The translations under genes were made by a program, and so were the position numbers. Positions 25,133 to 27,523 of a stretch of DNA of 35,702 nucleotides are shown in pieces. Position 1 is the stretch's first letter, and every line of letters starts with the position of its first letter. Origin of the DNA: Candidatus Micrarchaeota archaeon (GTDB lineage Archaea > Micrarchaeota > Micrarchaeia > Anstonellales > Bilamarchaeaceae); contig JBFMCO010000009.1 in the NCBI GenBank assembly GCA_040754495.1, positions 1 through 35,702 of the forward strand. Direction: 5' to 3'. The notes under the pieces are model-generated. The model searched no databases. It had not been told where the DNA came from and saw nothing but the letters and a program-made list of their open reading frames with translations.

Positions 25133-25249
25133 GCCCGTTCCCTTTTCCAGGCTTTGGTTATTGAGTTGGATTTGAATCATTAAAAAGACCTCGGCCAGGG
25201 ATTGGAAATTGTTTTAAAAAGAAAGGTAACATAAGATTTCACGCTTTTT

Positions 25250-25464
25250 GGGCCCGTAGCTCAGCCTGGTTGGAGCGTTCGACTGATAGAAACTTTTTTG
25301 GAAAAAGTTTCATCAAAAACTGACTGTTGCAAAACCCTCTCGGGTTTTGGGTGAAAACCATTTTGCCGCAAGGGCAAAATCAGCGAGTCCGTTTTTGATC
25401 AAAACTTTTTTCTAAAAAGTTTTGGGAAATCGAAAGGTCGTGAGTTCAAATCTCGCCGGGCCCA
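25250..25464 (+). tRNA. tRNA-Ile(GAT) with 140-nt intron at 37/38
   Basis: Acceptor GGGCCCG/CGGGCCC, D stem GCTC/GAGC, anticodon stem TTCGA/TCGAA, anticodon GAT at 25285-25287, T loop TTCAAAT. No encoded CCA. Confidence 0.92.
25289..25428 (+). other. Structured tRNA intron with about 33-nt terminal inverted repeats and an internal four-way junction
   Basis: Manual base pairing (see findings). Forms a BHB-like motif with the exons. Confidence 0.85.
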
Positions 25465-25598
25465 AATTCTCTTTTTTGTCTCCAGCATCGGGTCTCCCGT
25501 CGCTTATTGCGCTTTAGCCCGTATTTTCCCCACTTATTACGCCAACTTCCCGCAAACAGCAACAATTTTAATAACAAGCGCCCATATGATTTCCGAGG

Positions 25599-27395: not shown

Positions 27396-27523
27396 GCAGG
27401 GATGACAGAGCCAGGTCAAATGTGCGGCGCTTAGGACGCCGTGGCTTAACGCATGACGGCGCCGATTTATGGCGACGGAATGCGGGCCAAGTGCCTGCGC
27501 AGGTTCAAATCCTGCTCCCTGCA
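27396..27523 (+). tRNA. tRNA-Leu(TAG) with about 42-nt intron in the variable arm
   Basis: Acceptor GCAGGGA/TCCCTGC, anticodon stem CGGCG/CGCCG, anticodon TAG at 27432-27434, T arm GCAGG-TTCAAAT-CCTGC. The oversized variable region has a bulge-helix-bulge core; predicted intron 27449-27490. Confidence 0.88.

Follow-up and report, generated by a model that had tools for sequence, protein, structure and literature searches.

The window, which is the whole stretch of DNA that was analysed, is an entire 35.7-kb contig from the MAG of a Bilamarchaeum-like member of the Micrarchaeota (1.63 Mb in 72 contigs, 59.5% GC, 80% complete). It carries a tRNA-Ile(GAU) gene that is interrupted by an intron (Table 1) and adjoined by a TFB gene, the closest relatives of which are found in Candidatus Bilamarchaeum / Bilamarchaeaceae and in other Micrarchaeota records. 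When the exons are joined without the intron, ARAGORN folds the spliced sequence into a regular tRNA-Ile(gat) cloverleaf. The tRNA-Ile(GAU) exon has a single match within the assembly, so that one gene copy was found. The intron is AT-rich, with 37% GC against 59.5% for the genome. It carries no C box (RTGATGA), the longest reading frame starting with ATG encodes 24 aa, and searches of Rfam at the gathering and E-value thresholds returned nothing credible for the intron. Most tRNA genes of the host genome bear such introns. We conclude that positions 25289-25428 are a real and almost certainly functional intron, the splicing of which is itself predicted.

Table 1. Features of the interrupted tRNA-Ile(GAU) locus, in positions of the window
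Feature	Position	Strand	Basis and remarks
tRNA-Ile(GAU) gene	25250-25464	+	anticodon loop C-U-GAU-A
TATA-like box TTTTAAAAAG, putative promoter	25212..25221	+	~30 nt upstream of tRNA start; sequence only, suggested by archaeal promoter spacing
5' exon, tRNA positions 1-37	25250..25288	+	identical or near-identical in 33 congeners
Intron, 140 nt, canonical 37/38 site	25289..25428	+	sequence, ARAGORN, folding, in-silico splicing
5' unit: hairpin GAAAC-UUUUUUGGAAAAA-GUUUC (25289-25311), linker AUCAAAAAC, UGACUG	25289..25327	+	unit-model (R2) match 42.7 bits; perfect 10-bp hairpin
Core: long stem and four-way junction	25313..25399	+	core-model (R1) match 95.7 bits; covariation across ~30 copies
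Junction hairpin 1, CAAAACCC-UCUC-GGGUUUUG	25330..25349	+	100% of cells paired; compensatory change in 7/8 pairs
Junction hairpin 2, GGU-GAAA-ACC	25350..25359	+	100% of cells paired
Junction hairpin 3, AUUUUGCC-GCAAG-GGCAAAAU (GCAAG/GCAA loop)	25360..25380	+	compensatory change in 9/9 pairs
3' unit, inverted: GUUUUUGAU, then hairpin CAAAAC-UUUUUUCUAAAAA-GUUUUG (25400-25424)	25384..25424	-	unit-model match 34.1 bits, minus strand; perfect 11-bp hairpin
GGAA tail: predicted BHB strand and 3' bulge	25425..25428	+	register analysis; hBHBh' rule (PMC3239211)
3' exon, tRNA positions 38-73, CCA not encoded	25429..25464	+	sequence and in-silico splicing
T6 run past the tRNA, likely terminator	25472..25477	+	suggested by the sequence alone

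The gene is not found by standard tools, since ARAGORN on default settings reports zero tRNA in the window and Rfam likewise misses the tRNA-Ile gene. With the option -i, ARAGORN calls the gene 'Ser gga'; we rejected this call, in which the anticodon is misplaced, and fixed the identity by hand and by in-silico splicing. We also dropped two other readings of the intron, one as a C/D box intron, as a C box is lacking and Rfam gives no snoRNA match that rises above noise, and the other as a group I or group II intron, as no Rfam ribozyme model matches and 140 nt is too short. This intron of an essential tRNA also contains two T6 runs (25294-25299 and 25406-25411), which are similar to archaeal terminators and would need read-through. 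A second tRNA gene, at 27396-27523 on the plus strand of the window (Rfam tRNA, 47.9 bits), was parsed as tRNA-Leu(UAG) and is miscalled as Pro by ARAGORN -i; the ~35-40 extra nt in its variable arm fall outside the hairpin-unit family described below.

The minimum free energy (MFE) of the intron is -57.7 kcal/mol (z -7.34, with none of 200 shuffles folding equally well), and in the corresponding fold a long stem leads to a four-way junction that has no gaps and bears three inner hairpins. The terminal inverted repeats are 74% complementary over 38 nt (I1) and 83% complementary over 24 nt (I2), and each end also forms a perfect local hairpin of its own (I5 at the 5' end and I3 at the 3' end). 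A cruciform fold with these two end hairpins has an energy of -55.2 kcal/mol, merely 2.5 above that of the rod fold, in which the ends pair with each other. For the family as a whole we rejected an obligatory pairing between both end hairpins: their stems differ in most paralogous introns, indicating that the conserved fold is the cruciform and not the end-to-end duplex.

At the splice sites, the canonical register gives a putative bulge-helix-bulge (BHB) motif with a central helix of C32-G, U33.G, G34xG and A35-U, followed by a 9-bp h'; a strict hBHBh' motif has a helix of 4 bp between two bulges of 3 nt. By register analysis, the intron strand of this helix, facing C32 U33 G34 A35, would be made of the GG of the GGAA tail together with G 25424 and U 25423, and the AA of the tail and A38 of the 3' exon would constitute the 3' bulge. 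The unconstrained MFE fold of the pre-tRNA keeps the cloverleaf and the rod and replaces the clean BHB by a 6x6 internal loop, which implies that the BHB is relaxed at best. The sequence-only reading of this locus had described a 140-nt intron in tRNA-Ile(GAT) without an ORF or a box C, with inverted-repeat ends that each also fold alone, a long stem and a four-way junction carrying three hairpins, and a BHB with one G:G mismatch. We recovered the intron at the same coordinates and with the same sequence, together with the canonical spliced cloverleaf, the lack of RTGATGA and of ATG reading frames above 24 aa, both sets of terminal pairings and the same three junction hairpins in the MFE fold; the mismatch is the G34xG pair of the canonical register.

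The host genome encodes an EndA of 391 aa (G000:C14) that matches 4FZ2, the epsilon2 enzyme of ARMAN-2, end to end (E 1e-132), a second EndA-like protein of 168 aa, and RtcB (E 9e-166).

A BLAST search of the intron against its own genome found six or more further tRNA introns with related stretches, and one solo hairpin. These share a directional unit that consists of a variable stem of 4-7 bp, a UUUU-NGG-AAAA tip, the stem partner, (C)CCAAAAC and NGNCUG, and the genome contains 36 such units by rule and ~39 by covariance model. The stems vary (gaaac, ccgcc, gcgcc, cccgc, ccaac, cgcacc and others) yet stay paired; as units were selected by requiring a stem, the percentage of pairing is no evidence, and it is the variety of the stems that counts. 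The introns have a common layout: a unit stands at the 5' splice site, and an inverted second unit immediately precedes the 3' splice site. The rod that separates them carries either a single hairpin, in introns of ~100 nt such as those on contigs 26, 51, 58 and 66, or three that are grouped at a four-way junction, which is the arrangement of the tRNA-Ile intron and of those on contigs 4, 50, 56 and 59. In two of the long-form introns (G000:C4:14000-14030 and G000:C59:11950-12010), extra CCCATGGAAC..GTTCCATAGGG hairpins are nested in the end hairpins, and the G011 orthologue has the same nesting.

About 26 of the 36 units lie within tRNA genes (18 recognised by ARAGORN and 8 by eye), as inverted pairs flanking introns, and the other 10 are found elsewhere: immediately 3' to the RNase P RNA and to two tRNAs, ~60 nt past a tRNA-Gly, at five sites between genes, in the spacer of rpl23 and rpl2, and, read in frame, within a PyrF-like ORF. 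The spacer unit is a solo copy of the GAAAC type that overlaps the rpl23 stop codon (G000:C19:11760-11798, plus strand). It is shared by this genome and G041 and looks decayed in G006, and ~20 congeners have a bare spacer of 10-15 nt. The unit in the PyrF-like (OMP decarboxylase-like) ORF (G000:C14:17184-17220, minus strand) is read in frame as ..LRLLGKGAPKRG..; the resulting insert of 7-8 residues is absent in five of the seven congeners aligned, the other two having a similar insert. Introns in tRNA-Glu, in tRNA-Ala and in T-loops share a 40-nt module of the GAAAC type that is 95-98% identical between species, the flanking genes of which are only ~70-85% identical. Together with the insertions in the spacer and in the ORF, this near-identity speaks for movement or copying of at least the unit at the DNA level. 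We saw no target-site duplication at either boundary of the intron or around the rpl23-rpl2 insertion, and neither a Y1/RAYT-type transposase nor a reverse transcriptase was detected in the host genome, which is 80% complete. Three to four TnpB-like (Cas12f1-like_TNB) ORFs are present (C66:1722-1919 on the minus strand, C5:28975-29172, C46:48913-49107 and C53:7361-7546), and in no case did we see units at their ends. On contig 66 the TnpB-like ORF is an immediate neighbour of an intron-bearing tRNA (C66:800-979).

Several of the units outside introns have particular surroundings. At G000:C61:200-643 (minus strand) the RNase P RNA (Rfam 71.4 bits, E 1e-18) is followed immediately on its 3' side by the unit. 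A 16-nt direct repeat, GACTATGCCCCTCACT, stands right in front of the unit and recurs ~130 nt beyond it; it may be the scar of an insertion, or the 3' end of the RNase P RNA may have been duplicated in part. At G000:C23:10320-10490 (minus strand) a tRNA-Gly(GCC) is followed by a AAAATTTT-TCT-AAAATTTT hairpin, a degenerate second tRNA 3' end and then the unit, an arrangement that resembles an integration scar. Two similar units with CCCC-U6-AGN-A6-GGGG hairpins (G000:C22:18774-18812, plus strand, and G000:C14:44056-44094, minus strand) abut the 3' ends of different tRNAs; the start of a rod of the family type comes next, and the T6 runs could double as terminators. We rejected the notion that the hairpin generally serves to terminate transcription, given its location within essential pre-tRNAs. 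Run over all genome contigs, a loose pattern for the unit gave mostly chance bacterial matches and looked real only with a flanking stem; the matches with a stem are mainly from Micrarchaeota, with a few from Woesearchaeota, one from Aenigmatarchaeota and some from unclassified archaea, and they support no claim of a wide distribution.

To follow the four-way-junction core across the genus we used a covariance model of 88 positions. It has matches in 16 of the 40 congeneric genomes, with up to 19 copies per genome, and in none of 84 other Micrarchaeota genera that were sampled (151 genomes of the phylum). In an alignment of 32 matches, 96.3% of the cells are paired, compared with at most 58% when the partners are slid, and both sides have changed in a compensatory manner in 20 of 33 pairs; this alignment is fitted to the model, two of its rows represent loci that are read a second time in antisense, and the copies are related by descent and not independent. 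The core scores ~37 bits in antisense versus 103 bits in sense, which, together with the conserved U.G and G.U pairs, indicates that its structure is strand-specific. All of the core copies examined are inside a tRNA or 23S rRNA gene and in sense orientation. They are found in tRNAs for Ile, Ala, Val, Asp, Pro and other amino acids, at position 37/38, in the D-loop (C56:40547; G015:C85) and in the T-loop or T-arm (G045:C23; G044:C25), and some tRNA genes have two or three introns. The 23S rRNA copy is a long-form core in sense orientation (L147 1501-1629, from G045:C81; Rfam LSU_rRNA_archaea covers 1-1793).

The 37/38 site of tRNA-Ile was compared among 30 congeners and has five states. The gene is intron-less in five genomes, and in 14 it carries a short intron of type A (41-56 nt), which keeps the 5' hairpin and AUCAAAAAC. 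Nine genomes have type B (51-56 nt, and including one of 109 nt with a nested insert), in which part of the 5' tip is left as a remnant, along with the long stem's 3' strand and the 3' hairpin; it retains UAGCA..CCC.GUUUUGGGG, that is, the long-stem 3' strand without its partner. One congener has an unrelated intron of 50 nt, and the 140-nt long form occurs at this site only in the genome studied here. The type A introns of 51-53 nt have both hairpins and no remnants of the core, and the 3' part of the window intron aligns with them; the window intron equals this short form plus 86 nt between the direct repeats TTTCATCAAAA and TTTGATCAAAA (ATCAAAA(A)C). The repeat is internal to the element and is absent from other long copies. 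The copy most similar to the window core (86%) lies in a T-arm intron from a different species; the core is 83% identical to the copy on contig 59 of its own genome and resembles no tRNA-Ile intron. This suggests that a pre-existing short intron probably gained the core through recombination between paralogous introns that share CAAAAC and GUUUUG flanks. The type B remnants look like deletions from a long ancestor and speak for the opposite direction of change.

Taken together, we think it probable that the segment is a BHB-type, protein-spliced intron in the sole tRNA-Ile(GAU) gene found, that it is a copy of a lineage-specific modular repeat, and that its core was gained in this genome. A member of the family is composed of a 5' hairpin unit, a self-folding rod with one hairpin or with three around a four-way junction, and an inverted 3' unit, and in the computed fold the ends and the rod juxtapose both splice sites beside the anticodon stem. 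The broad-specificity epsilon2 EndA may then cut the transcript at a relaxed BHB, in which three of the four central positions would pair, including one G.U wobble, next to the 9-bp h'. RtcB would join the exons, and the intron would leave as a probable circle; both the splicing and the formation of the circle are predictions drawn from the sequence and the gene content. The covarying RNA structure would be kept because every copy must stay spliceable in an essential gene. As for the history of the site, it may first have held a short family intron of ~50 nt with both end hairpins and no core, after which, in this genome alone, the core of 86 nt would have been added between the ATCAAAA(A)C repeats. 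A DNA-level event may have brought this about, such as an insertion, or an exchange with a paralogous intron through gene conversion or ectopic recombination.

The history could also have run in the other direction, with a long four-way-junction intron ancestral at the Ile site, the short and intron-less alleles being its deletion derivatives, and no gain in this genome. The deletion scars of type B, which keeps one strand of the long stem without its partner, are clear and keep this alternative live. The 41-nt introns of type A look like trimmed versions of the 51-53-nt forms, and the ATCAAAA(A)C direct repeats would favour deletion by slippage. However, the long form is present in just one of the 30 congeners, its core is closest to copies in other tRNAs and not to any tRNA-Ile intron, and the 51-53-nt forms, with which the 3' part of the window intron aligns, have both hairpins and not a trace of the core. 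We give this course of events roughly a one-in-four standing, below that of a gain. That the locus is a pseudogene or an assembly artefact, with an insert that is never removed, is very improbable. The MAG is fragmented into 72 contigs and is 80% complete, and the gene escapes both ARAGORN on default settings and Rfam; against this, the exons are intact and agree with those of 33 congeners, the gene is the sole tRNA-Ile(GAU) gene found, a promoter-like box and a T-run flank it, and most tRNA genes of this genome have introns of the same kind.

The remaining alternatives concern the reason for the spread and conservation of the family. The sequence-only reading had proposed a mobile palindromic element removed as an intron. 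Dispersed copies are present in the own and in related genomes, intron-less alleles exist in five of the 30 congeners at the same Ile site, and a covariance model retrieves many covarying copies in 16 of 40 congeneric genomes; the description as a palindrome-ended repeat that is spliced out as an intron is therefore fair, and this part of the proposal stands. In a stronger version, a selfish MITE- or REP-like DNA element would insert anywhere, survive in tRNA and rRNA genes by being spliced out through the host endonuclease, and be mobilised in trans. A strict MITE is not supported, although architecture and copy number suit that label: no target-site duplication was seen at the intron or the spacer insertion, no Y1/RAYT-type transposase partner was detected in the 80% complete genome, the TnpB-like ORFs are not seen bounded by units, and full copies with both units and the core are found only in spliced RNA genes, all in sense orientation, with conserved G.U wobbles that make the core structure strand-specific. 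In favour of the stronger version are the inverted terminal units, the AT-richness of the intron (37% GC) within a 59.5% GC genome, the 40-nt module that is 95-98% identical across tRNAs and species, and the solo units outside introns, in the rpl23-rpl2 spacer, in the PyrF-like ORF and next to the 3' ends of tRNAs and the RNase P RNA. We regard such an element as a tentative possibility. With the same reserve, the unit and the rod or junction core might be seen as an undescribed class of small mobile DNA in Archaea that enters RNA genes, spacers and coding sequence and makes itself harmless by being spliced out through the host endonuclease. Another purpose of the conservation would be a function of the excised, probably circular intron as a trans-acting ncRNA, protein-binding or regulatory, for which the family is kept. 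Archaeal introns are circularised and some carry guide RNAs, such as the C/D box intron of Haloferax tRNA-Trp; RtcB is encoded here, and the strict sense orientation and the strong covariation and conservation of the core over ~30 copies would agree with such a role. Yet the intron has no C/D box and no Rfam match, the number of copies ranges from 0 to 19 per genome, as in selfish repeats, and the core is absent from 24 of the 40 congeners and from every other tRNA-Ile, indicating that it is dispensable. We consider this role doubtful, well behind the mobile-element reading.

Our preferred reading, a spliced intron that belongs to a modular repeat family, can be placed next to several known systems. 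MITEs and the bacterial REP/REPIN elements, which are moved by RAYT transposases, are short, non-coding, AT-rich, palindromic and multi-copy. The unit family is likewise palindromic, with inverted ends, many copies and insertion polymorphism in an intergenic spacer; unlike these elements, it has no target-site duplication or cognate transposase that we could find, its full copies are restricted to the sense strand of spliced RNA genes, and its internal structure covaries with strand-specific G.U pairs. The tRNA-Trp intron of Haloferax volcanii is long and structured, lies at 37/38, contains a C/D box guide RNA and is released by EndA. The present family differs from it in having neither C/D boxes nor an Rfam match and in being multi-copy, whereas the Haloferax intron is a single conserved locus. 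The archaeal group I introns that have been reported in Micrarchaeota are all in rRNA genes. In full-text literature searches we found no account of structured introns with hairpin ends that form a family in Micrarchaeota.

The closest parallel for the splicing comes from the same phylum. The epsilon2 EndA of Candidatus Micrarchaeum acidiphilum ARMAN-2 is described as cutting strict and relaxed BHB motifs in vitro (PMC3239211), and ARMAN-2 is described as having many interrupted tRNA genes, including ones with T-loop introns, multiple introns and relaxed BHB motifs (PMC3239211; 4FZ2, PMC3488258). The host EndA studied here is a full-length match to 4FZ2. In contrast to the introns of the present family, those assayed in ARMAN-2 had 13 and 25 nt according to PMC3239211, and the accessible part of that report makes no mention of a repeat family, terminal hairpin units or a conserved core.

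The closest parallel for the spread is found in the transposed tRNA introns of the Thermoproteales (Fujishima, Sugahara, Tomita & Kanai 2010, Mol Biol Evol 27:2233; via PMC4090602). As summarised in PMC4090602, their presence varies between related species, their removal needs a broad-specificity endonuclease, and their spread is thought to occur at the DNA level by an unknown mechanism. Similar to these introns, the Micrarchaeota family is present in different tRNAs, at sites both canonical and non-canonical, and shows gain or loss at one site; it is a variant of this known phenomenon and not a new kind of element. It differs in its host, a member of the DPANN with an epsilon2 EndA in place of the alpha-beta enzyme, in the length of the introns (~100-250 nt), in their strongly folded, modular construction from hairpin units, inverted at the two ends, and a rod or junction that covaries, and in that the terminal unit also occurs solo outside introns. 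A practical consequence for annotation is that standard tRNA finders (ARAGORN on default settings, Rfam) miss such genes. With its terminal units, its covarying core, its many positions, its solo units and the five states of the Ile site, the family makes the gain and loss of introns, and a link between introns and selfish repeats, testable. If the reading as a mobile element hidden by splicing were true, this would be a living example of protein-spliced introns born from selfish repeats. For the gain of tRNA introns in Archaea, and by extension of nuclear tRNA introns in eukaryotes, the Thermoproteales have been the sole well-known case of 'transposition', and the Micrarchaeota family constitutes a second, feature-richer system of intron transposition.
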